From Capsulimonadales bacterium (GTDB taxonomy: Bacteria > Armatimonadota > Armatimonadia > Armatimonadales > Armatimonadaceae): 38,094 nucleotides of DNA. Every line of letters begins with the position of its first letter. Position 1 is the first letter of the stretch. The notes beneath the pieces were generated by a model, which ran no database searches, had not been told where the DNA came from, and saw only the letters and a program-made list of their open reading frames with translations. Position numbers and translations under genes: made by a program. The stretch lies in the NCBI GenBank assembly GCA_033762295.1, contig JANRLW010000079.1:1-38094 (forward strand), read 5' to 3'. Below are positions 1 through 12,409 of this stretch, piece by piece.

Positions 1-432
1 CCCCTTATCAAATGTGAACCGCCCCGCGTGCGCCGGGAGGCGCGACAGGATGTCATCGAACGGCTTAGCGGAGTAGGATTTCTGCTTCTCGGTCAAGATG
101 TAAATGATAACACGGTCGTACTTCTCGTACAGACGATGCTCGATCACTTTCTCTAACGTGTGTTTGACCTTCTCGCTGTCGCTGGTTGAAGTGATTTGGA
201 AAGCCACCCGCGCAGTCTCGTCGCCCAGATCAATACCAGGGTAGTTTGCCCCCTCCGTCGCGTTGAGATTTTTCAGGTCATGGAACCCGTAAACATGACG
301 AAGTAACGGAATCATAAAGTCTTCCGAAACGTGGTTGATGTCCGTCCGACTCATAGCGGTGAAGCCCTTGATCTGGGCGACGAAGCGGGACATCAACTCA
401 ACGATGCGATTTTGGGTATGCAGGGTCTTCAA
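1..432 (-). CDS. SMEK-domain protein, N-terminal part only (continues off the left edge); probable defence-associated protein
   Basis: Not in the ORF track; translated by hand from TTG at 432: MKTLHTQNRIVELMSRFVAQIKGFTAMSRTDINHVSEDFMIPLLRHVYGFHDLKNLNATEGANYPGIDLGDETARVAFQITSTSDSEKVKHTLEK..., open to base 1. The 'DIN..sE...L.NLN....N.PGIDLGD.....aFQITS.....K' pattern matches the N-terminal SMEK domain. Confidence 0.8.
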   Translation of the reverse strand, partial: MKTLHTQNRIVELMSRFVAQIKGFTAMSRTDINHVSEDFMIPLLRHVYGFHDLKNLNATEGANYPGIDLGDETARVAFQITSTSDSEKVKHTLEKVIEHRLYEKYDRVIIYILTEKQKSYSAKPFDDILSRLPAHAGRFTFDKG

Positions 433-591
433 TGGTGTGGTTTGACGCGGGTCGCGCTGGCAATGAAATTACGAAGTAAACTACGCTCAACTTCGGAAAC
501 CGGAAAGGTCGTCGAAAAAATTTATAGCACTGGACCCATCTCATGGGGTTGGTCTGCCAAGCCGTGATGTTCGGCTCGGCAGGCTTTTGCG

Positions 592-1374
592 TCAGACCCG
601 CTGTGGCACATTCAATGGGTATCGGTCACGGTCGATCTTGTAGGAGTGGAAATCTGACCACACATTATCAAGAACGTCCGCTACTTCGTGTTGGGACTCA
701 CTGGCGTGGGTTATTAACACTGGGTCAATCTCATCGCCCTCCTCGTGCCAGAGTTGCCACACACCATCGTGATTCTGCTCGAACTGCCCACCAGCGTGAT
801 AAAGCATCTGCAATAGAAAGATGGCCTTAACACGTGGCGGGATTGCTGTGGCATCACACATTCCCGCAATGACGGTAGCAACGATAACGGCGACTCCTTG
901 AAGCGTTACTGCTTCAGGCAGATGGGCACTCCCACTTTCCGACAGTCTGACGTTAGGATGTAAGCAACGAATCGCTTCGATTGCGAACGCCATCGCGTCC
1001 TTCACGTTATCGTGTCGCCCAAAATCAAATGCTATACCGCCTCGCTCGACTTCGACGCTCCATGAGCGTTCTGCTTCATCCCATCGAACGCATGAGGCGG
1101 CTTCCGCTTCCTTCGAAATCTCCCGAGTAGAACAGTCACGAGGAGCGCGGCGCTCAAACTTGGCGACGGCCTTCCAGACAGTCTCCACTCTGTCCTTGTC
1201 GATCATACGAGTGTAGCGGTCTGGGTCGCGATGTGCCGCTAACTCCTCGTCGGTGAGTAAGTCTGAGTTGTCGTATTCGTCGTAATGAACGCCGTCTTGG
1301 TTATCGTTGTAGATGCTGTGGTCATCTGATCCCAGTGGATCACAACCGGTGAGAAGCAGTTTTCTTGTAGTCAT
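592..1374 (-). CDS. Hypothetical protein (260 aa) with a central AP2-like DNA-binding segment
   Basis: Clean ORF with AAGGA upstream. Segment CVRWDEAERSWSVEVERGGIAFDFGRHDNVKDAMAFAIEAIRCLH resembles the AP2 pattern V.W.....W...I...G....lG.f....eA......a...lh. Confidence 0.55.
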   Translation of the reverse strand: MTTRKLLLTGCDPLGSDDHSIYNDNQDGVHYDEYDNSDLLTDEELAAHRDPDRYTRMIDKDRVETVWKAVAKFERRAPRDCSTREISKEAEAASCVRWDEAERSWSVEVERGGIAFDFGRHDNVKDAMAFAIEAIRCLHPNVRLSESGSAHLPEAVTLQGVAVIVATVIAGMCDATAIPPRVKAIFLLQMLYHAGGQFEQNHDGVWQLWHEEGDEIDPVLITHASESQHEVADVLDNVWSDFHSYKIDRDRYPLNVPQRV

Positions 1375-1624
1375 TTCTGTTGATTCCTTTTCTCAGTCCA
1401 GCACGGCTTTCCGCCGCACTGGGTCAGTATCTCACTGACATAATGTATGTCCTGCCGAGCCGCATATGATTCACCCGTTAAATTCGAAAATCGGTTTGCT
1501 TTTTTTGGCCTACCATTTGTAGGGCTTTTTTCTCTGCTCGCCTCGGCGTGTTGGTGTCAATAGAACATAAGAATCTACGGGTAAGGGGTGGGACACCCCG
1601 GAGCAAGTCAATTACCGAAGGATG

Positions 1625-3109
1625 TCACTCTGGCTCAAGAAGGGTCAACAATCCCAGTGATGCCGCACGCGCCGAGAAGACTGCTTGTAGACGGCGCACA
1701 ATTCGCTCACGTTGATTAGCGTCTGTGACGTGGACACTGACACCATCGTGCAACCAGGACACGACGACCAGATCGCGTTCGGCCTCAAAGATGGGAAGGA
1801 GGGATAGCATGAGGGCAACCTCATACGACTGGACCTCCTGAGCCAGCAGAGATCGCATTTTTGCCTGTCGGCGGTTATAGTCGATGCGACGCCCGAACGC
1901 ATCCACGATGTGTCGCTCCCTCTTAATTTGCCTTAGTCGAGCCTGACGGGCGGCGAGCAGTTCGGCGATGATAGGGTGGGCGAGGAAGGAATCCGCTGCC
2001 TCCCCACTAACATCGTTTACTGGTTTGACCGACATCGGCGTGCGCCTTCCTCTTTTTCGTGATTGTTGATAATTGGGTAGCCCGAGCAGGTTACGCCGGA
2101 CGTTGATGACCTTCATTCCAAAAATGATCGAGTATAGTGCTTCCTTAACTAAAGGCTTGGCATCAGGACCGACTCCCATTGCACTGAGAAGTTCGGTCCA
2201 AATAGACTGTCGGGACGAGAGGAATTCCGATACGCGGGGAACGTCCCACAGTTTTGCGACGACAGCCAGTTGGCAGGCGCGAGCATCCAGAGATACGCAA
2301 CCATGTAACGCCGCCTTGCGGAGTGCGCGAGGGAGTTGGTGGATCGTCGCTCCCAGCGCATGAAGCCGAGGTGTCCTTTCGGATGCCGCGTAGATCATCT
2401 TGCAGTAGTCCCGCAAAACCAAGAGGGTTCTATGAGCCGCATCCCTCGATGCGCCTTCGGGCATATTGTCAAACTCTCGCAGGACACGCGGCCAATTCGC
2501 CCGAACGATTTTGCCAATCGTGGTCTGCGGTTGGTTGTTGAGGTATGTCATCAAGGTGTGAGCAGGGTGATCTGGACCAACACCATCGGCGAGAAGTTTG
2601 AGCGTCTCCGTGTATGTTGCGGCCTCCGCGTACATCTTCTTGCGGGTCACAGGGATGCCGGTCACAAACCATACTTGGCCCCCGGTTTTGCCAAAGGCAT
2701 GGAGTGGCTCATCCTCAAGGATGTCCTGAACATCCTGGGGCAAATCACGGATAACCGTTCGGGCCTCACCTTCCCAATGGTTGTGGGGGCTCACGTTAAG
2801 CCGCCAAACGTCCTGGCTGAACGAGTAGAGCCAGTCGGCAGCCGCGAAGTGACGCTTGCCAGCAATGGGTTTGCCCCTGACAACTTTCTCGATGGTGGTC
2901 GCCGGGACAATCAGCCTCCCCTCGTCATCCTCGAAACGCGAGAAAATCAGGTATTCGACCATGCGGCGGTACGCCTCAGCGTGAGGATGGTACGAAAGGG
3001 CTGGATAGGAGGCGAGTAGGGCATCGCGGCCTTGCTGGCTGATTTTTGCCGGAAACGGCACATAGGAGCGCGTAAGTGCCGCGCTGGGTAGTGAGTATGT
3101 CTGTTGCAT
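1625..3109 (-). CDS. Stand-alone, divergent family A DNA polymerase-like protein (polymerase domain only)
   Basis: PolA motifs in order: TPRLHALGATIHQLP (TGRLSS..PNLQNIP-like), motif A SLDARACQL, motif B KPLVKEALYSIIFG, LAQEVQSYE (N..IQG-like), motif C SWLHDGV. No recognisable exonuclease motifs in the N-terminal part. Confidence 0.75.
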   Translation of the reverse strand: MQQTYSLPSAALTRSYVPFPAKISQQGRDALLASYPALSYHPHAEAYRRMVEYLIFSRFEDDEGRLIVPATTIEKVVRGKPIAGKRHFAAADWLYSFSQDVWRLNVSPHNHWEGEARTVIRDLPQDVQDILEDEPLHAFGKTGGQVWFVTGIPVTRKKMYAEAATYTETLKLLADGVGPDHPAHTLMTYLNNQPQTTIGKIVRANWPRVLREFDNMPEGASRDAAHRTLLVLRDYCKMIYAASERTPRLHALGATIHQLPRALRKAALHGCVSLDARACQLAVVAKLWDVPRVSEFLSSRQSIWTELLSAMGVGPDAKPLVKEALYSIIFGMKVINVRRNLLGLPNYQQSRKRGRRTPMSVKPVNDVSGEAADSFLAHPIIAELLAARQARLRQIKRERHIVDAFGRRIDYNRRQAKMRSLLAQEVQSYEVALMLSLLPIFEAERDLVVVSWLHDGVSVHVTDANQRERIVRRLQAVFSARAASLGLLTLLEPE

Positions 3110-3318
3110 ACCCGCTACGTCCTGCCAACATTAAAGCGATCCGACCGTTAATTGCGATTGAATTTTTGCCGATGCACGGGCTTCGACCACAGCGAAAAAA
3201 GTTTCAAAAAAGTTTGTCGCTGGACGCAACTTATACTGTCGCCACCCTGATAAGAAAATGCGCGGAGGAGACACGGTAACGGTCACAGTACACCGCGCTA
3301 CAGAACGAGGAGATCGCG

Positions 3319-3528
3319 ATGAGTAAACAATGGATTCTTCAAAGCGCCGCTGACATAAACGCGGCCTACCCTGACACGTTCCTAATTCCGAGCGTCAGGG
3401 AACGAAATAACCTCCGGGTGGGGGATGTTGTAAAACTGATCTTCGCTCCGGTTGACGGGGGGACTTGCCCCGAGCGTATGTGGGTCGAAGTTGTGAAGGT
3501 CGGGCCGGGGCTTCGTATTCGAGGTTAA
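3319..3528 (+). pseudogene. Probably truncated small conserved hypothetical protein (PDTF.IP...R..L..GD.VKLIF...ERMWV type)
   Basis: Good RBS (GAGGAG) and ATG. The conserved-looking sequence stops at ERMWVEVVKVGPG, where it runs into the antisense of the methyltransferase gene. Confidence 0.55.
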
Positions 3529-4201
3529 AAATTCGTTTCGCACCGGGATTCTTCGCATAAAAAAGAAGATCATCGTGCATCGACTGGTAATTCGTGGATG
3601 TCGAAGGCCAGCGCCTATAGCTCCAAATAACATGATTGAGAAACGCCTTTTCGCCAAATATCTCGTCCATCAACACTTTGATGTAGTGACTCTTCTTCTG
3701 GTCTAAATGCACATAGATGCAACCGTTATCTGACAATAAATCTCGAAGCATTATGAGGCGGCGGCGAATGAATTCAAGGAATTTGGCCCCTGCAATCTTG
3801 TCTTGGTATGCTTTCTGGTCTTGGCTACCGTGAAAATCCTGTTTAGTTGCAAAAGGTGGATCAATATAAATAAGGCGGACGCCTTCGGAGCCATCAGCAT
3901 TTTTGAGTTCTCCCCGTTTCTTCATCGCAAGTAAGGTCTTCATGGCCTGGAGGTTGTCACCAAATATGAGCAGATTGCGCCAATCGGTAGTGCCAGGGTT
4001 CGAGCCGAACGTGCGGACAGGCTGAAGCGGAACCGCCATCGTATCCGCCAGTATGTCGGCTTCGCGCTCCTTGCCGCCGTACACGAGTTCGTACTCGCGC
4101 CGCTCCGGGGGGAACAAGAACCGCTGGTACTCCAGCGGCACATCCTCGCCGCGCATAAGCAGGTCTACTATCTCATCTCGAATATCGTCAGGTAATGTCA
4201 T
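3395..4201 (-). pseudogene. Truncated type III Mod-like / beta-class N6-adenine DNA methyltransferase
   Basis: LIFGDNLQAM, catalytic IYIDPPF, GCIYVHLD and EIFG...F.N motifs are present. Resemblance ends at ...RIFNLEYEAP (~3506), and the SAM-binding FxGxG motif I is absent. Confidence 0.8.
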
Positions 4202-4474
4202 AAGCGTTTTGAGGTAGTTGAGCCGACTCTCCCAGCCCGCTCTTCTTCCTGATCCAGTATAGGACAGGAACTACCGGCGCGGTAGCCAAAGCGGAAACGT
4301 AAGGCAAACGATTAGGTAGCACAGGCTGGGGCAATCAACCTGTGCGGCGAGGGCGTTACCGAGGAACCCTTTGGAAGTTTGCCGCCGTCCGACGTAGAAT
4401 AGGCAGGGCGCGGCTGTGGACGGATTATCCTTCTCGGGGATTGAACGCATGGACCGCCGTGATAAGTTCACCCA

Positions 4475-5812
4475 ATGAGAGGCGCAAGAATGAGAGGGCG
4501 AGACCGTTCGGGGAAGCAGGTGGATGGGGCGATAACACGCCCTCTGATCCTGCTTGGGATAACTGTTCTGATAGATTTGTTGGGATTTGGAATTGTTTTG
4601 CCAAATCTCCCGCAATACATCGAACTGGCTGTCGGAAAGGATCATCGACACGCGGCGTTCATCGCCGGACTGCTCGCCGCCTCCTATTCGCTGACACAGT
4701 TCCTTTGCGCTCCGTTCTGGGGCAGTTACAGCGATCGGGCGGGCCGACGACCGGTAATCCTGATCTCCCTGATCGGGGTCGGCATCTCCTATATCTTCTT
4801 CGGGTTCGCGAACGGAAGTCTGACACTGCTGTTCATCGCCCGGCTGCTGGCCGGTCTGCTTTCGTCGGCGTCGATCGGGGTGGCGTTCGCCTATGTCGCC
4901 GATGTCACGTCGCCGGAGAACCGCGCGGTCGGCATGGGACTGCTCGGCGCATGTTTCGGACTCGGTTTCGCTTTCGGCCCGGTGGTCGGCGGACTGCTCG
5001 GAACCATCGACCTTGCCCTTCCCGCCTTTGTCGCCGCCGGAATGGCCTTCGCCAACTTTGTCCTTTCCTATTTCCTGCTGCCCGAATCGCTGACGGCGGG
5101 GCAGCGGACGGAACTGGCCCGACGGAAGCGGGAAGCCTATCCGGCCATGATGCGCCGGGTGCTGAAAGATCCCGCGTCTCCGCTCTTCCTGGTGACCTTC
5201 ATCCTGACCTTCGGCTTCGCCGCGATCGAGCAGGCGTTCGGCTTTTTCCTGATGGCGCGGGGCATCGCGACGCCGGAGACGCAGCAGGTGCGACAGGCCT
5301 ATCTGCTGGGATTCGTCGGGGTGGTCGGAATCGTTCTCCAGGGGTTTTTGATCGGACCGCTGGTCCGGAGATTCGGAGAGGGCCTGCTGGTCCGTCTGGG
5401 ACTGGCGATCCTGACCGTCGGGTATGTGCTGCTCCTGATCCCCCGCGAATGGGGCGTCATGGTCTTTGTGGCGACGCTGTTCGTGGCGTTCGGTCGGTCG
5501 ATGATCGGTCCGGCGGCGACCTCGCTGATTTCGCGGAGGACGCGGGTCGGTCAGGGATTGATCCAGTCGTCCTCGCAGGGGTTCGATGCGCTCGCACGCA
5601 CGGTCGGACCGTTGACGGCGGGCGCATTGTTCAACGCCCTCGGCCCGACCGCGCCCTATGTGTTCTCGGCCGGATTGACGGTGCTGGCGCTGTTCGTGAC
5701 GTTCGTCTTTGCCGGGGCGATGACCGTGCCGCCGCAGGAAGCGGTGGAGGTCGAGACGCAGAACACGGAGGCGGCGATGGTCTCCTCCGGGAAGGTCGGT
5801 GCGGTCGAATGA
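4475..5812 (+). CDS. MFS transporter, TetA/DHA1-like (start uncertain: 4475, 4490 or 4520)
   Basis: D.LGFGIVLP motif, motif A GSYSDRAGRR, motif C GFAFGPVVGG, about 12 hydrophobic segments. Confidence 0.9.
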   Translation: MRGARMRGRDRSGKQVDGAITRPLILLGITVLIDLLGFGIVLPNLPQYIELAVGKDHRHAAFIAGLLAASYSLTQFLCAPFWGSYSDRAGRRPVILISLIGVGISYIFFGFANGSLTLLFIARLLAGLLSSASIGVAFAYVADVTSPENRAVGMGLLGACFGLGFAFGPVVGGLLGTIDLALPAFVAAGMAFANFVLSYFLLPESLTAGQRTELARRKREAYPAMMRRVLKDPASPLFLVTFILTFGFAAIEQAFGFFLMARGIATPETQQVRQAYLLGFVGVVGIVLQGFLIGPLVRRFGEGLLVRLGLAILTVGYVLLLIPREWGVMVFVATLFVAFGRSMIGPAATSLISRRTRVGQGLIQSSSQGFDALARTVGPLTAGALFNALGPTAPYVFSAGLTVLALFVTFVFAGAMTVPPQEAVEVETQNTEAAMVSSGKVGAVE

Positions 5813-6573
5813 CGGTGTCGTGCAAGGGGCGGATCGGATGGGCCGGAATCGCGGTCCTCGTGCTGTTCGCGGCGGGCTGTACCCGACGTGTGGAGCAGGA
5901 GGCCGAAAAGCAGTTCAAAGCGGCGTTGCCCGAGTATGTCGGTCCGGCGGAACGCTACGACGTCCGGGTGAGGAGCGACAGCGCGGGAGCGGTGATGCGC
6001 GGACGACTGCGGCAGGTTCGGGTCGACGGGCGGAAGGTGCAGGTGGAACCGACGCTGACGCTGGATCGATTGACGCTGGATTTCGAGGAGGTCTCTCTGG
6101 ATACGCGGGCTCGCCGCCTGCAGAGTATCGGCCGCGCGACGTTCGAGTGCCGTATCCATGCGCCGGTGTTGCAGGAGTACGTGCGGCGTCAGCATCCGGA
6201 GATTCCGGACCTGGGGATCGCGCTCCGGGCGGACAGCCTTTTCATCACGGCGCGGCCGGACGCGCTCGGACTGGTGGAAAAACCGTTCCAACTCGACCTG
6301 CCGGGGAAGCTGCCGGTAACGATCACGGTGGAGGGGAAACTGACCCCGTCCGGGCCGACGCAGTTGAACTTTTCCCCCGAGAAGGCGGGGGTCAGCATCG
6401 TCCCGATACCGCGGTTCGCCCTGGAGTTTCTGGCGAAGCGTCTGAACCCGGTGGTCAATCTGTCGACCATGAAGGTGCCGATTCAGGCCGACCGCGCCTT
6501 CGTGCGCGGAGAGTATCTCCACTTCACCGGGACCATCCGACCGGAGGATCTTCTCCGACTCCCGTCCCGGTGA
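5809..6573 (+). CDS. DUF2993 / LmeA-like lipoprotein
   Basis: ATG overlaps the MFS stop (ATGA). Signal peptide with lipobox FAAGC, then a beta-rich body. This is the real part of the 743-aa track ORF. Confidence 0.65.
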   Translation: MTVSCKGRIGWAGIAVLVLFAAGCTRRVEQEAEKQFKAALPEYVGPAERYDVRVRSDSAGAVMRGRLRQVRVDGRKVQVEPTLTLDRLTLDFEEVSLDTRARRLQSIGRATFECRIHAPVLQEYVRRQHPEIPDLGIALRADSLFITARPDALGLVEKPFQLDLPGKLPVTITVEGKLTPSGPTQLNFSPEKAGVSIVPIPRFALEFLAKRLNPVVNLSTMKVPIQADRAFVRGEYLHFTGTIRPEDLLRLPSR

Positions 6574-6582
6574 CGACCCGAC

Positions 6583-6837
6583 TTACAGATATTTCTTCTT
6601 TTTGGCGGGCGCGGCGTAGGGTTCGGGCGTGAACTGCTTGTAGGCGGTCTGGAGATACTGCCAGATGTGCGCACAGCAGAAGAGGGCGACGAACGCGATA
6701 CCTGCCGCTCGGCGCGTGCCTTTCGGGATGAGGAAGATGACGCAGGCGGTCATCAGCATCGCCCAGATGCGCCACCACTTATCGGGACCGTACAGGAAAA
6801 GAAGGGTGTCGCGTACGGGTTGCGGCAAGGACTCCAT
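6583..6837 (-). CDS. Small membrane protein (2 TM), hypothetical
   Basis: GGAGG RBS before ATG, two hydrophobic segments, host-like codon usage. Confidence 0.7.
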   Translation of the reverse strand: MESLPQPVRDTLLFLYGPDKWWRIWAMLMTACVIFLIPKGTRRAAGIAFVALFCCAHIWQYLQTAYKQFTPEPYAAPAKKKKYL

Positions 6838-6965
6838 GAAACCTCCGGGAAACCTGTTTCAAATACCGATACCAACGTCGGATTTTCGATATTGATTATC
6901 GGTCCCGGGGGGAGGCTGGCTCAGGGGTAGTTTTGTCTGATGAAGTACGAAAGGCGATGGCGTAC

Positions 6966-6999
6966 CCGGTAGGTCCGACGATCCGGTAGGTCCGACGAT
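6966..6999. repeat. Perfect 17-bp tandem duplication (CCGGTAGGTCCGACGAT x2)
   Basis: Read directly: 6966-6982 and 6983-6999. Confidence 0.9.
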
Positions 7000-7853
7000 C
7001 ACAACAACTCGAACAGGAGTTCGACCGGGTAGAAGACACCGCCGAAGGGCGCGGTGGTCAGGTTCAGGCCGTTCTTTCCGGCGATCGCCTCGCAAAAGAC
7101 CCGCCAGTGGGTCGCCGGAATAATGCGGCTCTGCCGCAGTTTGCCATTGAGGGAACCGACCAGGCCCGCTTTACCGCCGCGCGGGGAGAAACTCACCCGC
7201 ACCCGTCGGCCCTCAGGGGCGTCGATCCGGAAGGCGTAGAGCATGCCGTAGGTGCCGTCGAGCGCATGATGCATCCCGATCTCCCGCTCCCCGATCCGGA
7301 AGTAGCGGGTTCGGGTTTCACCGGAAAGGGAGACCTCGATTTCCCGGCGCGGGTCCGGAACGACGATCGTGTGCACGCCCGGCGCGGTCCAGCGGTCGTG
7401 ACGGAAGTAGAGGCGCAGCACGGCATCGGTCTCGCAGCGGACGGTGAGAACGCCGGAGGCGACCTGACGCGGGCGCAGCGGGTAGGCGAAACGCGCGAAG
7501 CCTTTCTTCCCGACGAACTCCGTGTCGGGTGAGGACAGGTAGCGGGCCATCGCCTGCCGACCGGCGACGCTCGGATCGCGGTTCGGATCGGCCAACCCCT
7601 GCCGCGCCGAGAAGCGAAGCGGACTGCCGTTCGTCTCGCGCAGACCGATCACGAACGGGGCGGTGTCGCGGGTGACATTCCGGAAGTGATAAAAAATGGT
7701 ATACGTCTCTCCCGCCCTGAGGAGCGCGTTGCCGTACGCGCCGGGAAGACGGATTTTCTCCGGATTGTTGCAGAAGAGGAGATGCTCCCCGGCAAGGACG
7801 GGACACGGAAGAGCGAGCAGAACCAGCAGTAGGACGACGATGCTTCTGGGCAT
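6999..7853 (-). CDS. Secreted hypothetical protein (284 aa)
   Basis: Signal peptide MPRSIVVLLLVLLALPCPVLA, host-like codon usage, conserved-looking motifs LLFCNNPE, GTYGMLY and PRGG. Confidence 0.75.
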   Translation of the reverse strand: MPRSIVVLLLVLLALPCPVLAGEHLLFCNNPEKIRLPGAYGNALLRAGETYTIFYHFRNVTRDTAPFVIGLRETNGSPLRFSARQGLADPNRDPSVAGRQAMARYLSSPDTEFVGKKGFARFAYPLRPRQVASGVLTVRCETDAVLRLYFRHDRWTAPGVHTIVVPDPRREIEVSLSGETRTRYFRIGEREIGMHHALDGTYGMLYAFRIDAPEGRRVRVSFSPRGGKAGLVGSLNGKLRQSRIIPATHWRVFCEAIAGKNGLNLTTAPFGGVFYPVELLFELL

Positions 7854-7943
7854 GGAACCGTGAAATCCACTTTCCGGGAGGTTATCGTCAGGGTATCATA
7901 CCGATCCGGCCCCCGCTTTCGGTGCGAAGGAATCCGACGGGGC

Positions 7944-7975
7944 GTCCGGAGTTTGGCCCGTCCGGAGTTTGGCCC
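7944..7975. repeat. Perfect 16-bp tandem duplication (GTCCGGAGTTTGGCCC x2)
   Basis: Read directly: 7944-7959 and 7960-7975. Confidence 0.9.
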
Positions 7976-8002
7976 TTCGGGTGCGGCGGAACGTACGGAA
8001 CG

Positions 8003-8011
8003 TGCTATAAT
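8003..8011 (+). promoter_or_regulatory. Extended -10 promoter (TGCTATAAT) of the ileS operon leader
   Basis: Perfect TGnTATAAT about 280 nt upstream of the ileS start. Confidence 0.7.
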
Positions 8012-8025
8012 GGTTCTTGCGTAGC

Positions 8026-8127
8026 ATGTATCAACGGACGACGGCAATGAACGTGGCGTGCGCGGCGGTCAACCGCGGCGCGGGCAACGGCGGCATAGAA
8101 CAGATTATTTCGCGCCCCTCGGCGTGA
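8026..8127 (+). CDS. Putative ileS leader peptide (33 aa, MYQRTTAMNVACAAVNRGAGNGGIEQIISRPSA; alternative start at 8047)
   Basis: Short ORF just after the -10. It has Ile codons ATA, ATT, ATT near its end, followed by a segment (8111-8126) complementary to 8190-8205. Confidence 0.6.
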   Translation: MYQRTTAMNVACAAVNRGAGNGGIEQIISRPSA

Positions 8128-8292
8128 GGCCCCTGTGCGCGCGCGGCGAGAGTTCGCCCGGTGTGCGACGGATTCGACAGGTGCCTTACCATGCCGGGGG
8201 GCGCGTCCTGTTCGAACGTTCGTCGAGGAATCCGCTGCCCGCGCGGAAGGGAACGGGCTGACGCTCCCGCCCCTTCGAGAGTTGAAATCGTA

Positions 8293-11103
8293 ATGGACTT
8301 TTCGCAAACGCTCAATCTGCCGAAGACCGATTTTCCGATGAAGGCCGACCTCCCGACACGTGAACCCCTCTGGCAGGCGTTCTGGGAGGAGAATGCCATC
8401 TATCGGAAATCGCTGGAGAAGGAAGCCCCGCGCGGCTCCTTCGTTCTGCATGACGGACCGCCGTACTCCAACGGCAATATCCACCTCGGACACTCGCTCA
8501 ACAAAATCCTGAAGGACTTCATCACCCGGCACCGGACGATGCAGGGGTACCGCTCGCCGTATGTTCCCGGCTGGGATAACCATGGCCTGCCGATCGAAGT
8601 CCAGGTCATGAAGGAGTTCCGGGAAAAGAAGCAGACCTGGACCCCGGAGACGCTCCGGAAACGGTGCCGCTCGTTCGCCGCCGAATGGGTGGAGGTGCAG
8701 AAACGACAGTTTATGCGCCTCGGAGTGCGCGGCGACTGGGAACACCCCTACCTGACGATGTCCCCGGCGTTCGAAGCGAAAATCGTCGAGGTCTTTGCCC
8801 AACTCGCGAAACGCGGCTATGTCTATCGTGGCCTGAAGCCGGTGCTCTGGGACAGCGCGAACGAAACCGCCCTCGCCAATACGGAGGCCGAGTACAGGGA
8901 TCATACCTCGCCGTCGATCTACGTCACGTTCCCCCTGGTCGAGGACGCGCAGAACGTTTTCGAGGGACTGGATCGGTCGAAACTCTCGGCGGTGATCTGG
9001 ACCACGACCCCCTGGACCATCCCGGCCAACATGGCCCTCGCCTTCCATCCCGACTTCGACTACACCGTCGCGCGGACGGAGAGCGGTGACCTGCTGCTGG
9101 TCGCCGAGGACCTTCGCGAAGCCGTGGCCCGCGAGACCGAACTGGGAACCCTCACCCCGGTGAGAACGATCAAGGGCGCGCAGGTGGAAGGCTCCCGCTT
9201 CCGTCATCCGTTGCCCGAGATGAGCCGGGATTCGCTCGCCGTCCTGGCTTCGGACTACATCACCACCGATACCGGTACGGGTATCGTTCATACCGCGCCC
9301 GGCCATGGCGCGGACGACTACTTCACCGGACGACGCTACCACCTGCCGGTGCTCTGCGTGGTCGATGGCCGCGGACGTTACACCGAGGATGCCGGACCGT
9401 TCGTCGGATGGACGACGGAGGAGGCCAATACCCGCATCCCCGAACGGCTGAAGGAGGAGGGACGTCTGCTGGCCCATAAGCAATACGTCCACTCGTACCC
9501 CCATTCGCCGCGCGCGCCGTATCGTCCGCTGCTGTTCCGGGCCACCGTACAGTGGTTCGTCTCGGTCGAGCATGACAATCTGAAGGCCCGCGCCCTGGAG
9601 GAGATCGGCAAGGTCGAGTGGTTCCCGGCGGTATCCGAGAACCGCATCCGCGCCGCCATCGCCGGACGACCGGACTGGACCGTCTCACGTCAACGCTACT
9701 GGGGCGTCGGTATCCCCGTCTTTTACGCCAACGGCGAACCGGTGATGACGGAGGAATCGCTGGCGGCGGTCGTCCGTCTCGTGCGCGAAAAGGGCACCGA
9801 TGCCTGGTACGAGGTTCCGCCCGAGGAGATCCTGCCGCCCGGATTCACCTTTAACGGCGTTGCGGCAAAGGATTTCGTCAAGGAGACCGACGTTCTGGAC
9901 GTCTGGTTCGACTCCGGCACGACCAGCATGGCGGTCCTGGATTCCGGCCTCTGGGAGGGGCTGTCCTATCCGGCCGAGGTCTATCTGGAAGGATCGGACC
10001 AGCATCGGGGCTGGTTCAACTCCTCGCTGATGCTTGGCACCGCCATCAAGGGTAGCGCGCCGTTCCGGCAGGTCGTCACCAACGGGTTTACGGTGGATGA
10101 ACGCGGGATCAAGATGAGCAAGTCCAAGGGGAATTCGGTCGATCCTCTGGGCGTCATCGAACAGTTCGGCGCGGATGTTCTGCGCCTGTGGGTGGCCTCG
10201 ACCCAGTATCAGGAGGATACCCGTCTGGGCGAGAACATCCTGAAGCAGCAGACCGATAACTATCGCCAGCTGCGCAATACGTTCCGCTTTCTGCTCGGGA
10301 GCCTGTTCGATTTCGATCCGGCAGGGGATGCCGTCCCGGTGTCCGAGATGGATCTCCTCGACCGGTACGCGCTGTCCCGCCTGCAAAAACTGGTCGCCGC
10401 CTGTACGACGGCGTTCGAACGGTACGACTTCCAGGAGGCGTCCCAGGCGATCCTGCTCTTCTGCGGCACGGAACTGTCGGCGTTCTATCTGGATGTCCTG
10501 AAGGACCGGCTCTACACGTTGCTGCCGGAGGATCCGAAACGCCGGTCGTCCCAGACCGCTCTGTATGAGATCGCGTCCGTGCTGGCGCGGCTCCTCGCCC
10601 CGGTGCTGGTGCATACGGCGGAGGAGGTGTGGCAGCATCTTCCGGGTCGGTCGCCGCTGTCCGTGCATCTCGCGGACTGGCCGGAGGTGCGAACGGAGTA
10701 TGCGGACGACGCTCTGGAGGCGCGGTTCGCCGAACTGCTCGCCGTACGCAGTGAGTTCGACCGCCAGATGCAACCGCTCAAGGACGCCCGGACTTTGACC
10801 AAGTCGGCGGCGGCGTTCGTGACCGTGATCGCGGGCGGAGAGCGGCTGGCGCGGCTGGGTGCGATGGAGGAAACGCTGCGGGAGGCGTTGATCGTACCGA
10901 AACTGGCGCTGGTCGAAGGGCCGGCGGCGGACGCCGACGGGTTTTCACTGACGATCGAACCTGCCCCCGGCGAAAAGTGCGAGCGAAGCTGGTTTGTGCG
11001 CGAGGATGTGGGCGCCGATCCGGAGTTTCCGACGCTTTCGCTGCCGCAGGCGGCGATCGTGCGGGAACTGCTTCGCCGTGCCGACGGAAAGGCGGGTTCG
11101 TGA
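8293..11103 (+). CDS. ileS: Isoleucine--tRNA ligase (bacterial type 1)
   Basis: TLNLPKTDFPMKA N-terminus, HDGPPY, HIGH motif (HLGH), GWDNHGLPIE, WTTTPWT, GTGIVHTAPGHG, EGSDQHRGWF, KMSKS. Confidence 0.98.
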   Translation: MDFSQTLNLPKTDFPMKADLPTREPLWQAFWEENAIYRKSLEKEAPRGSFVLHDGPPYSNGNIHLGHSLNKILKDFITRHRTMQGYRSPYVPGWDNHGLPIEVQVMKEFREKKQTWTPETLRKRCRSFAAEWVEVQKRQFMRLGVRGDWEHPYLTMSPAFEAKIVEVFAQLAKRGYVYRGLKPVLWDSANETALANTEAEYRDHTSPSIYVTFPLVEDAQNVFEGLDRSKLSAVIWTTTPWTIPANMALAFHPDFDYTVARTESGDLLLVAEDLREAVARETELGTLTPVRTIKGAQVEGSRFRHPLPEMSRDSLAVLASDYITTDTGTGIVHTAPGHGADDYFTGRRYHLPVLCVVDGRGRYTEDAGPFVGWTTEEANTRIPERLKEEGRLLAHKQYVHSYPHSPRAPYRPLLFRATVQWFVSVEHDNLKARALEEIGKVEWFPAVSENRIRAAIAGRPDWTVSRQRYWGVGIPVFYANGEPVMTEESLAAVVRLVREKGTDAWYEVPPEEILPPGFTFNGVAAKDFVKETDVLDVWFDSGTTSMAVLDSGLWEGLSYPAEVYLEGSDQHRGWFNSSLMLGTAIKGSAPFRQVVTNGFTVDERGIKMSKSKGNSVDPLGVIEQFGADVLRLWVASTQYQEDTRLGENILKQQTDNYRQLRNTFRFLLGSLFDFDPAGDAVPVSEMDLLDRYALSRLQKLVAACTTAFERYDFQEASQAILLFCGTELSAFYLDVLKDRLYTLLPEDPKRRSSQTALYEIASVLARLLAPVLVHTAEEVWQHLPGRSPLSVHLADWPEVRTEYADDALEARFAELLAVRSEFDRQMQPLKDARTLTKSAAAFVTVIAGGERLARLGAMEETLREALIVPKLALVEGPAADADGFSLTIEPAPGEKCERSWFVREDVGADPEFPTLSLPQAAIVRELLRRADGKAGS

Positions 11104-11606
11104 AGTTATCGACCCTCGGGTTTTATGTCATCGCGATCGGGATCGTCGCTCTGGATCAGGCGGTAAAGGCCTGGACGCGGGCGACGCTTCCGGTGGGCGG
11201 AACGATCCCACTCTGGAAGGACGTATTCGAGCTGTCCCATGCCCAGAACCAGGGGATGGCCTTTTCGTTGCTGGAAGGGCAGCGGTGGCCGCTTGCGGGG
11301 GCGGCGATCCTGGTGGCCGGGGTGATTATCGTCGCCCAGCGCCGAATGGCCGACCGGACACCGCTCCTCCTGGGATTGGCGCTGGCCATGCCGCTGGGCG
11401 GGGCGGTCGGTAACCTGATCGATCGGCTCCGGTTCGGTTTTGTCACCGATCTGTTCTATTTCAAATTGATTAACTTTCCGGTCTTCAATGTGGCGGACGC
11501 CGCCATCACGGTCGGGATGGCGCTGCTGTTCTGGCATACCCTGACGGTACGGGAACCGGAACCCGCCGCCGTCGTTCCGCCGCTCCCGTCGAACGAACCG
11601 TCCTGA
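11100..11606 (+). CDS. lspA: Lipoprotein signal peptidase II
   Basis: GTG overlaps the ileS stop. DQAVK, N.GMAFS, GGAVGNLIDR and FPVFNVAD motifs; classic ileS-lspA order. Confidence 0.96.
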   Translation: MKLSTLGFYVIAIGIVALDQAVKAWTRATLPVGGTIPLWKDVFELSHAQNQGMAFSLLEGQRWPLAGAAILVAGVIIVAQRRMADRTPLLLGLALAMPLGGAVGNLIDRLRFGFVTDLFYFKLINFPVFNVADAAITVGMALLFWHTLTVREPEPAAVVPPLPSNEPS

Positions 11607-11635
11607 CCGCTTCCGAGATTTTGAGGGATACCAAC

Positions 11636-12409
11636 GTGCTGCCTGTCCTGTTTCATATTGGCAACTTTCCGGTACGCTCCTGGGGCCTGCTGCTGATGGT
11701 GGGCTTTCTGGCGGGGACCTGGTGGGCGGCGCGCAACGCCCGGCGTTACGGAATCGCGCCCGAGGACGTCTGGGATATCTCGCTGGTCGGTCTGTTCGGC
11801 GGCGTGGTCGGGGCGCGGCTCTTCTGGGTGGCACAGAACCTTCCCTATATCGCCCGGCACCCGCAGGAGATCGCGGCCGTCTGGACCGGGGGAATGACGT
11901 TTTACGGGGGGCTTTTCGGCGGGATTCTGGCAGGGATGCTTATGTGCCGCCGCAAAAAGGTAAACATGGCGGATATGGCCGACCTGGCGGGTCTGGCCTT
12001 CCCGATCGGTTATTTCTTTGGGCGGATCGGCTGTTTTCTCAATGGCTGCTGTTACGGCGGAGAGTGCGATTTGCCCTGGGGCACCCGGTTTCACCTGCCG
12101 AACGGAACGATGACGCCGCCGTCCCATCCGGCCCAGCTGTATGCCGCCGTGGCGGCGGTGATCATGTTCCTTGTACTGCGGACGATCGAGCGTCGGCGGG
12201 CGTTTCCCGGTCAGGTCATACTGAGCTTTGTCGGCCTGTATGCGATTTATCGGTTCTTCATCGAGTTCGTCCGCGAAGGCGCGACGGCGGACCTGGCGGG
12301 TATCGCTCACCTGACGGTCGGGCAGGTCTTCAGCCTCGGGGTGGCCGTGGCGGTCGCCGTCTGGTACGTCCTGGCCGCCCGGCGTCCGGTCCGATCGACG
12401 ACTCGATGA
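11636..12409 (+). CDS. lgt: Prolipoprotein diacylglyceryl transferase
   Basis: GARL, WTGGMTFYGG, GRIGCFLNGCCYG, HPAQLY and RFFIEFVR motifs. GTG at 11636 follows GAGGGA. Confidence 0.95.
   Translation: MLPVLFHIGNFPVRSWGLLLMVGFLAGTWWAARNARRYGIAPEDVWDISLVGLFGGVVGARLFWVAQNLPYIARHPQEIAAVWTGGMTFYGGLFGGILAGMLMCRRKKVNMADMADLAGLAFPIGYFFGRIGCFLNGCCYGGECDLPWGTRFHLPNGTMTPPSHPAQLYAAVAAVIMFLVLRTIERRRAFPGQVILSFVGLYAIYRFFIEFVREGATADLAGIAHLTVGQVFSLGVAVAVAVWYVLAARRPVRSTTR

Follow-up and report, generated by a model that had tools for sequence, protein, structure and literature searches.

A predicted minimal family-A polymerase without exonuclease domains, resembling TV-Pols, in a decayed genomic island of an Armatimonadota bacterium

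Transposon-Virus polymerases (TV-Pols) were described by Iyer, Abhiman and Aravind as minimal relatives of family-A DNA polymerases with a length of 400–600 residues (PMC2579912). According to the available part of that paper, the core of TV-Pols is composed of a thumb, an arginine hairpin, a palm and fingers, and is never linked to nucleases. A subset of TV-Pols has an extra N-terminal domain and is encoded beside integrase, resolvase or transposase genes, in hotspots where restriction-modification genes abound, and TV-Pols were predicted to be the primase-polymerases of replicative mobile elements. Here we analyse a gene encoding a 494-residue protein near the start of a 38,094-nucleotide stretch of DNA (hereafter the window) from a Capsulimonadales bacterium of the phylum Armatimonadota. 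Contig C79 (JANRLW010000079.1), of which the window forms the first 38,094 bases, ends at base 1 and is part of a 132-contig, 5.16-Mb assembly (GCA_033762295.1). Based on its predicted structure and on profile comparisons, the protein can be identified as a real minimal family-A polymerase that lacks exonuclease domains and is predicted to be catalytically competent. In our analysis, its family fits the description of TV-Pols, and we give somewhat better than even credence to the reading that it is a primase-polymerase of the TV-Pol kind and belongs to the core of integrative or plasmid-like elements whose defence cargo varies.

As far as the available text of the sources extends, the only biochemically tested relative of such a kind is CCPol with its partner MP. 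CCPol is an active polymerase that uses deoxynucleoside triphosphates (dNTPs) and primes de novo together with the small protein MP (Bebel 2020, PMC7581432), and the finding was extended to PolA–SSB pairs in Bacillota (Rice 2023, PMC10061031). Phages encode divPolA2, a divergent PolA without exonuclease that has an N-terminal globular domain and variable gene neighbourhoods; Yutin et al. (2024, PMC11348598) suggested that it is an auxiliary DNA polymerase for repair or translesion synthesis, or else a single-subunit RNA polymerase. The available parts of two recent censuses of PolA proteins (PMC10201439, PMC12926913) do not describe a group such as the one analysed here.

Predicted fold and active site

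The open reading frame (ORF) of the polymerase begins with ATG and contains no internal stop codon (Table 1). The AlphaFold2 model of the protein, calculated from an input of 22 sequences, has a mean predicted local distance difference test score (pLDDT) of 87.2 and a predicted template modelling score of 0.83. Comparison of the model with the PDB by Foldseek identified 169 matches with E ≤ 0.001 (best E 1.5e-7), and the best 50 of the 169 are all family-A DNA polymerases. The structural check proposed in the initial annotation of the locus thus returned a palm, fingers and thumb of the Pol I type. VIA-align superimposed residues 165–494 of the model, with 280–290 residues aligned, onto Aquifex Pol I, the Klenow fragment, the apicoplast polymerase apPol, Pol nu, T7 DNA polymerase, Pol theta and Taq polymerase with Z-scores of 17.0–14.5. 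RNA polymerases scored lower: T7 RNA polymerase had a Z-score of 10.5, the yeast mitochondrial enzyme 9.9, and N4 RNAPII 9.1.

Direct searches with the 494-residue sequence gave no family match in Pfam (E ≤ 0.1), PHROGs (E ≤ 0.1) or NCBIfam (E ≤ 1), none of the 5027 PADLOC models matched it at E ≤ 1, and phmmer found no similar chain in the PDB at E ≤ 10. The gathering threshold of the Pfam family DNA_pol_A (PF00476) was not reached, with nothing at E ≤ 0.1. A family profile, A1, produced only a non-significant match to motif B of Pol theta in the PDB (E 0.64). An alignment of 87 family sequences (A2) was compared by hhalign with a reference alignment of Escherichia coli Pol I and two Pol I genes of Armatimonadota, and the two matched over 407 columns with a probability of 96.8% and E 2.8e-10. 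The two Armatimonadota genes in this reference are true Pol I genes (PF00476, E 1e-154), and A2 also detected them in whole-genome searches, with E 1.2e-8 and 1.4e-7.

The hhalign comparison placed all PolA motifs in register with those of Pol I, as they had been mapped in the initial annotation. The two retained catalytic aspartates, D275 and D455, correspond to D705 and D882 of Pol I, the glutamine Q280 occupies the position of the steric-gate residue E710, and the motif B residues K318, K322, Y326 and F330 pair with R754, K758, F762 and Y766. Furthermore, R248 is paired with R668, Q427 with Q849, and H454-D455-G456 with H881-D882-E883. The strings that had been quoted for motif A (VSLDARACQLAVVA, which holds D275 and Q280), motif B (KPLVKEALYSIIFG) and motif C (SWLHDGV) were all found in the ORF, and their coordinates were re-derived. 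The assignment of the motifs is not due to chance, and a chance motif match is rejected. Residues R248, D275, W304, K322, E430 and G456 are invariant among the 87 sequences of A2, and conservation is at least 90% for Q280, K318, Y326, G331, Q427, H454 and D455. Judged by this conservation, the active site of the family is under purifying selection.

The window protein has the same fold as Pol I (Klenow, KlenTaq), with a Z-score of about 17 over 290 aligned residues and the same order of motifs. The differences are the lack of both the 5'-3' and the 3'-5' exonuclease domains, a shorter thumb, and four substitutions within the window family: glutamine for Glu710, glycine for Glu883, lysine for Arg754 and phenylalanine for Tyr766. 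Whereas Pol I is a housekeeping gene, the window family is accessory, patchy and mobile. The proposal that the catalytic motifs of the window protein are altered was overstated, since Gln280 and the HDG of motif C are conserved features of the whole family, and HDG is also present in two distant relatives, a protein from Polaromonas, which has C-H and HDG, and ORF030 of Ma-LMM01. The suggestion that the gate residue hints at altered selectivity between dNTPs and ribonucleoside triphosphates (rNTPs) was likewise overstated, because glutamine is isosteric with glutamate and the change alone says little about the choice of nucleotide. Tyr639 of T7 RNA polymerase and Tyr766 of the Klenow fragment occupy the rNTP-selecting position, which is filled by Phe330 in the window protein. 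The combination of the gate glutamine with Tyr326 and Phe330 tentatively suggests that the enzyme may use dNTPs.

The region preceding the palm contains two parts. The short thumb of the model is formed by helices (residues 156–174, 184–192, 196–204, 206–214 and 220–232), and the structural alignments to PolA enzymes begin at model residues 164–178. The N-terminal 162 residues were modelled alone from 19 sequences with a pLDDT of 87.5. The best VIA matches of this model are all winged-helix domains, from a PCI protein (Z 6.0), MarR (4.7), the Pi initiator (4.7), RepE (4.3) and ORC2 (4.1). These matches, with Z-scores of 4–6, are below the level trusted as homology, and the domain may be described as winged-helix-like. 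No exonuclease-type fold is present among the 50 structural matches listed for the N-terminal model, and no exonuclease family of Pfam matches the 494-residue polymerase at E ≤ 0.1. The initial annotation had described an N-terminal region of about 200 residues without an exonuclease signature; the lack of an exonuclease is upheld by both Pfam and the model, but about 85 of those residues belong to the thumb.

Distribution and neighbourhoods of the family

An exhaustive search of cluster representatives showed that the family comprises 1134 clusters (at 50% identity) with E ≤ 1e-3, or 862 with E ≤ 1e-10. A word-indexed search yielded 21 homologues, all of them unnamed or labelled 'hypothetical', none of which had a precomputed Pfam domain. 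Of the 401 Armatimonadota genomes sampled, 32 had matches to the A2 profile, and these belong to 27 of the 207 genera. Each of the listed genomes contains one to three places; six places have internal stops and several are split fragments, which shows that the family is patchy in Armatimonadota and often degraded. A scan of metagenomes found one locus. Beyond the phylum, a 468-residue relative is encoded on a megaplasmid (pDEIPE01) of the cultured Deinococcus peraridilitoris strain DSM 19664 (A2 E 7.5e-114), and a more distant, 538-residue relative on the 7.2-kb plasmid pW9NP1 of Polaromonas sp. W9N (hhalign E 1e-15). On pW9NP1 (locus L059, 37–2497), 10 bp separate the gene of the relative from that of a RepA_C replication initiator directly downstream, and ParA comes next.

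Two viral contigs from IMG/VR carry relatives of the polymerase. On the first, the polymerase is flanked by tail and terminase genes, with a homing endonuclease coming after it; on the second, which is 190 kb long, it is the only gene on its own strand within about 7 kb. The window polymerase and these two relatives had no tblastn match in 50,697 phage records.

The neighbourhoods were surveyed at the 20 longest of the 42 places outside the window, for up to 8 kb on each side, and the other 22 places, mostly fragments, were dropped. A tyrosine integrase is present within 8 kb in 7 of the 20 loci, and was confirmed by Pfam in five of them and by BLAST clustering only in two. Recognised defence systems are located within three ORFs of the polymerase in 7 of the 20 loci. 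They include DISARM DrmD with DrmMI, Hma, Gabija GajB, DndH/MADS-like and MkoA-like genes, and a type III methylase with an LmuB-like ATPase. Such varied defence neighbours are the pattern that an element core gene beside variable cargo would show. A gene of the HTH_17 (excisionase) type lies upstream of the polymerase on the Deinococcus megaplasmid and in locus L047. A scan of the 94 neighbour proteins from the 20 loci identified no 3'-5' (DnaQ-type) or flap (FEN-type) nuclease, no primase, and no helicase of the D5 or DnaB type. No neighbour is conserved across the 20 loci, and the polymerase has no fixed partner.

Additional arrangements were observed at individual loci. Hma-type genes adjoin the polymerase in two unrelated loci (L057, 13–5974, and L041, 3–5620), where they encode the methylase HmaB, the ATPase HmaC with a Swt1-like HEPN domain, and an HmaA-like SNF2 protein. 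The polymerase is directly followed by a homing-type endonuclease in loci L061 (GIY-YIG/phrog_314; 9695–11970) and L040 (HNH_3; 8001–10021), and in locus L060 (9947–12079) the gene directly after it has a weak match to HNH_3. On the 190-kb viral contig (L062, 759–4107), an endonuclease gene of opposite orientation separates a polymerase piece (phrog_35406) from an exonuclease/polymerase piece (phrog_31382, phrog_17).

The island fragment in the window

The first 4 kb of the window have a guanine-cytosine (GC) content of 0.50–0.56, compared with about 0.60–0.66 further on. The placement of the polymerase in mobile or foreign DNA, proposed from the sequence alone, agrees with the low GC content of its surroundings (0.50–0.56 against about 0.62). 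The ORFs scanned within positions 1–9573 of the window also bear out the observation that the polymerase has no helicase, primase or structural gene at its flanks. The polymerase is intact but lies inside a fragment of a decayed island (Table 1).

Table 1 Features of the polymerase gene and the surrounding island fragment in window coordinates
Feature	Positions	Strand	Evidence or remark
SMEK-domain protein of restriction-endonuclease (REase) type, defence-related, N-terminus, cut by contig end	1–432	-	PF21941 SMEK_N E 5.2e-42; PADLOC Aga_REase-PNTD1-PNTD2 E 6.2e-58
260-residue gene downstream of polymerase, no family match	592–1374	-	co-conserved in closest relatives
TV-Pol-like minimal family-A polymerase gene, intact, 494 residues	1625–3109	-	translation; VIA Z 17 with enzymes of the Pol I type; E 2.8e-10 against Pol I by hhalign
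Predicted palm and fingers, residues 236–494	1628–2404	-	motif positions and conservation
Motif C, SWLHDGV, H454-D455-G456	1739–1759	-	within palm and fingers
QSYE	1817–1831	-	within palm and fingers
VDAFGRR	1886–1906	-	within palm and fingers
Motif B, KPLVKEALYSIIFG	2117–2158	-	within palm and fingers
Motif A, VSLDARACQLAVVAKL	2249–2296	-	within palm and fingers
Arginine hairpin, RTPRLHALGATIHQLP	2330–2377	-	within palm and fingers
Predicted short helical thumb, residues about 150–235	2405–2662	-	model helices
Winged-helix-like N-terminal domain, residues about 20–135	2705–3052	-	domain model pLDDT 87.5, weak VIA matches
Upstream intergenic region	3110–3318		between polymerase gene and divergent small ORF; conserved at DNA level in metagenome contig L058
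Divergent DUF2314-like small ORF, 3'-truncated	3319–3528	+	69 residues versus 107 in L058; L058 homologue PF10077 E 7.7e-5
Truncated type III-like N6/N4 DNA methyltransferase, about first 222 residues real	3395–4201	-	PF01555 E 6.7e-20, profile positions 1–123 of 221
Rearrangement junction, two convergent genes without 3' ends	3515–3536		homology to L058 and C20 breaks

The extent of the decay can be followed by comparison with two other contigs. The metagenome contig L058 encodes a polymerase that is 90% identical to that of the window, and shares DNA with the window from position 3515 down to 1250, including the 5' end of the 260-residue gene. The methyltransferase, which matches the MTase_II/III models of PADLOC, has a paralogue on contig C20 of the same assembly with 70% amino-acid identity over residues 1–222. 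The homology to this paralogue ends at residue 222, at about base 3536, and the read-through tail of the ORF (3395–3535) is not methylase. Because the homology to L058 stops at 3515 and that to the methylase paralogue at about 3536, the segment between these positions is a rearrangement junction and the island is decayed. Positions 3677–4407 of the window, containing the 5' half of the methylase gene and its upstream sequence, are repeated on contig C20 (1186–1918; about 730 bp with about 80% identity). The C20 copy (L077) includes a longer paralogous methylase, and the last about 195 bp of the repeat (4212–4407) are outside any gene.

The remainder of the SMEK gene was not found elsewhere in the assembly. 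The 260-residue protein is 34% identical (E 2e-31) to the product of 8479–9849 in locus L057, which is located downstream of a polymerase with 75% identity to that of the window. Judged by these identities (34% versus 75%), the 260-residue gene evolves much faster than the polymerase. A prediction of a complex between the two proteins, run without controls, gave a score of 0.02 and a mark of 0.32, and has no bearing either way. No origin-like repeats, promoters or terminators around the polymerase exceeded the shuffled expectation. Upstream of the polymerase gene, the intergenic region contains AAAAAAGTTT at two places 11 nucleotides apart (3195–3215).

Proposed role and alternatives

The window family shares with TV-Pols the size of 400–600 residues, the minimal core, the two catalytic aspartates, the basic xxxK motif of the fingers and the lack of a nuclease (PMC2579912, available part). 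Common to both are also the extra N-terminal domain, which is present in a subset of TV-Pols, the context of integrases and restriction-modification hotspots, and insertion in phage genomes. The neighbourhoods resemble those of TV-Pols in having integrases in 7 of the 20 loci and defence or restriction-modification genes in 7 of the 20 and in the window; no recombinase is visible in the window, where the contig ends. The window family differs in having lysine at the first basic position of the RxxxK motif, and in that the N-terminal domain is winged-helix-like and alpha/beta in the model, whereas an all-helical domain was predicted for TV-Pols. Armatimonadota are not among the phyla listed in the available part of PMC2579912. 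ORF030 of Ma-LMM01, presumed to be the phage TV-Pol of that paper, adjoins IS605-type transposases and has in common with the window protein the C-[Q/H] after the aspartate of motif A, QSxE, and HDG. The N-terminal domains of ORF030 and of the Polaromonas relative do not align with that of the window protein, and a first-pass genome search with A2 gave no match in the Ma-LMM01 genome. CCPol is likewise an exonuclease-less family-A polymerase of an integrative element (SCCmec); as described in the available literature, its exonuclease domain survives as a remnant, it depends on the small OB-fold protein MP, and its operon also encodes a D5-type helicase, Cch2. Partners of the CCPol type (a small OB-fold protein, or a helicase of the D5 or DUF927 type) are absent by family among the 94 neighbours, and the small downstream ORFs are unrelated and mostly spurious-looking.

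A role in replication or priming is the most likely one and in our analysis best fits the neighbouring integrases and the RepA plasmid; the same role was proposed for TV-Pols (PMC2579912) and demonstrated biochemically for CCPol-MP (PMC7581432). The initial annotation had proposed a replication or priming protein of a small integrative element; the replication or priming part is the best fit, but the window does not show the element: its contig breaks off at base 1, it has no visible integrase and the island is decayed. In the mechanism that we infer, the protein would be an active polymerase that uses dNTPs and primes de novo, its N-terminal domain would bind DNA, and it would serve to replicate an element. 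After excision or activation of the element, the N-terminal domain would hold the element DNA, either an origin or a single-stranded template. The PolA core would then lay a DNA primer de novo and extend it with dNTPs, and replication proteins of the host would complete the copying.

Several observations weigh against the polymerase being a primase-polymerase core gene of mobile elements. Thirteen of the 20 loci have no integrase within 8 kb, no helicase, SSB/OB-fold protein or primase recurs as a partner, and the immediate neighbours are mostly unrelated genes or spurious small ORFs. Iterons or repeats flanking the polymerase in the window are not above chance. The copies within a genome share no DNA similarity, so that no recent transposition is seen, and a DNA comparison of all 20 loci detected no similarity either; because of this, the ends of an element cannot be defined. 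The 190-kb viral contig has genes of PolB-type polymerases within 10 kb, which makes the family gene an extra one. The gate residue is glutamine in the window family, whereas CCPol keeps glutamate (PMC7581432, available part). The hhalign match to the presumed TV-Pol ORF030, the one TV-Pol compared, is weak (probability 62.5%, E 7.3e-5, 180 columns), and weaker than that to Pol I (E 2.8e-10).

The polymerase could instead be an immune or counter-immune enzyme, which makes a nucleic-acid product upon infection, as defence reverse transcriptases do, or counters the defence of the host. We regard this as unlikely, even though the window gene is located between a methylase fragment and a defence gene of the SMEK/REase type, recognised defence systems are near the polymerase at over a third of the surveyed loci, and the polymerase is a solo gene with intergenic spacers of its own and no replication partner. 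Its moron-like single insertion on viral contigs and the faster divergence of the co-conserved 260-residue neighbour would also suit an immune function. However, the neighbouring defence systems all differ, there is no conserved operon partner, and no PADLOC model matches the protein. Co-location with restriction-modification hotspots had already been noted for TV-Pol elements (PMC2579912, available part), and the integrase and plasmid RepA contexts make a replication role the simpler explanation. The idea of a polymerase repurposed for defence, raised in the initial annotation, thus retains the presence of defence genes of many unrelated kinds nearby, but this is an association only, and none of them recurs as a partner. 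It is similarly improbable, in our estimate, that the protein is a one-protein replication starter, which would recognise the origin, prime de novo and extend with neither an MP-like subunit nor a dedicated helicase, or a solo polymerase of defence islands with an immune DNA product.

A function as an auxiliary repair or translesion DNA polymerase or as a single-subunit RNA polymerase, as suggested for divPolA2, would agree with the architecture and context that the two families share: both lack an exonuclease, have an N-terminal globular domain and variable neighbourhoods, and are extra to the normal polymerase of the phage (PMC11348598, available part). The RNA polymerases of T7, yeast mitochondria and N4 are among the structural matches of the model, and a promoter could be recognised by the DNA-binding-like N-terminal domain. 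The third carboxylate is absent from motif C, as it is in T7 RNA polymerase. Nevertheless, DNA polymerases score clearly higher (Z 14.5–17 against 9.1–10.5), and both Phe330, at the position of Tyr639 and Tyr766, and Tyr326, at that of Phe762, are DNA-polymerase-like. Moreover, hhalign found no match between A2 and the single divPolA2 sequence AUR84708 (E 0.69), a search of MG592441.1 with A2 found nothing, and divPolA2 has no recognisable thumb in the available description, whereas helices of the window model align to the thumb region of PolA. We consider this function slightly less probable than an immune one. The protein is very unlikely to be a typical phage PolA that simply has its proofreading exonuclease encoded by a separate gene nearby, as in the split genes of T7-like cyanophages (PMC10201439, available part). 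This reading is contradicted by the lack of matches to PF00476 or to a phage PolA of PHROGs even at E 0.1, by the absence of exonuclease families among all 94 neighbour proteins of the 20 loci, and by the negative tblastn search of phage records.

The kind of enzyme has been described before, as a concept, in 2008; the value of the finding is in annotation and in a tractable test case, and it introduces no new principle. A family of more than 1000 clusters, annotated as 'hypothetical protein' and missed by Pfam, PHROGs, NCBIfam and PADLOC, is predicted to represent a complete minimal enzyme of the Pol I type. An exonuclease-free polymerase of small size with a conserved sugar-gate glutamine is of interest both to enzymology and for practical use, and the arrangement of polymerase, RepA_C and ParA on pW9NP1 offers a natural, cultured test case. 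A one-protein replication starter, if it proved to be one, would be the counterpart in family A of piPolB, the self-priming polymerase of pipolins. If the polymerase primes and copies islands that carry defence genes, as the favoured TV-Pol-like role implies, it would be a second and simpler primase built on the Pol I fold after CCPol-MP, and the family would mark a class of integrative elements that replicate themselves and ferry defence systems.

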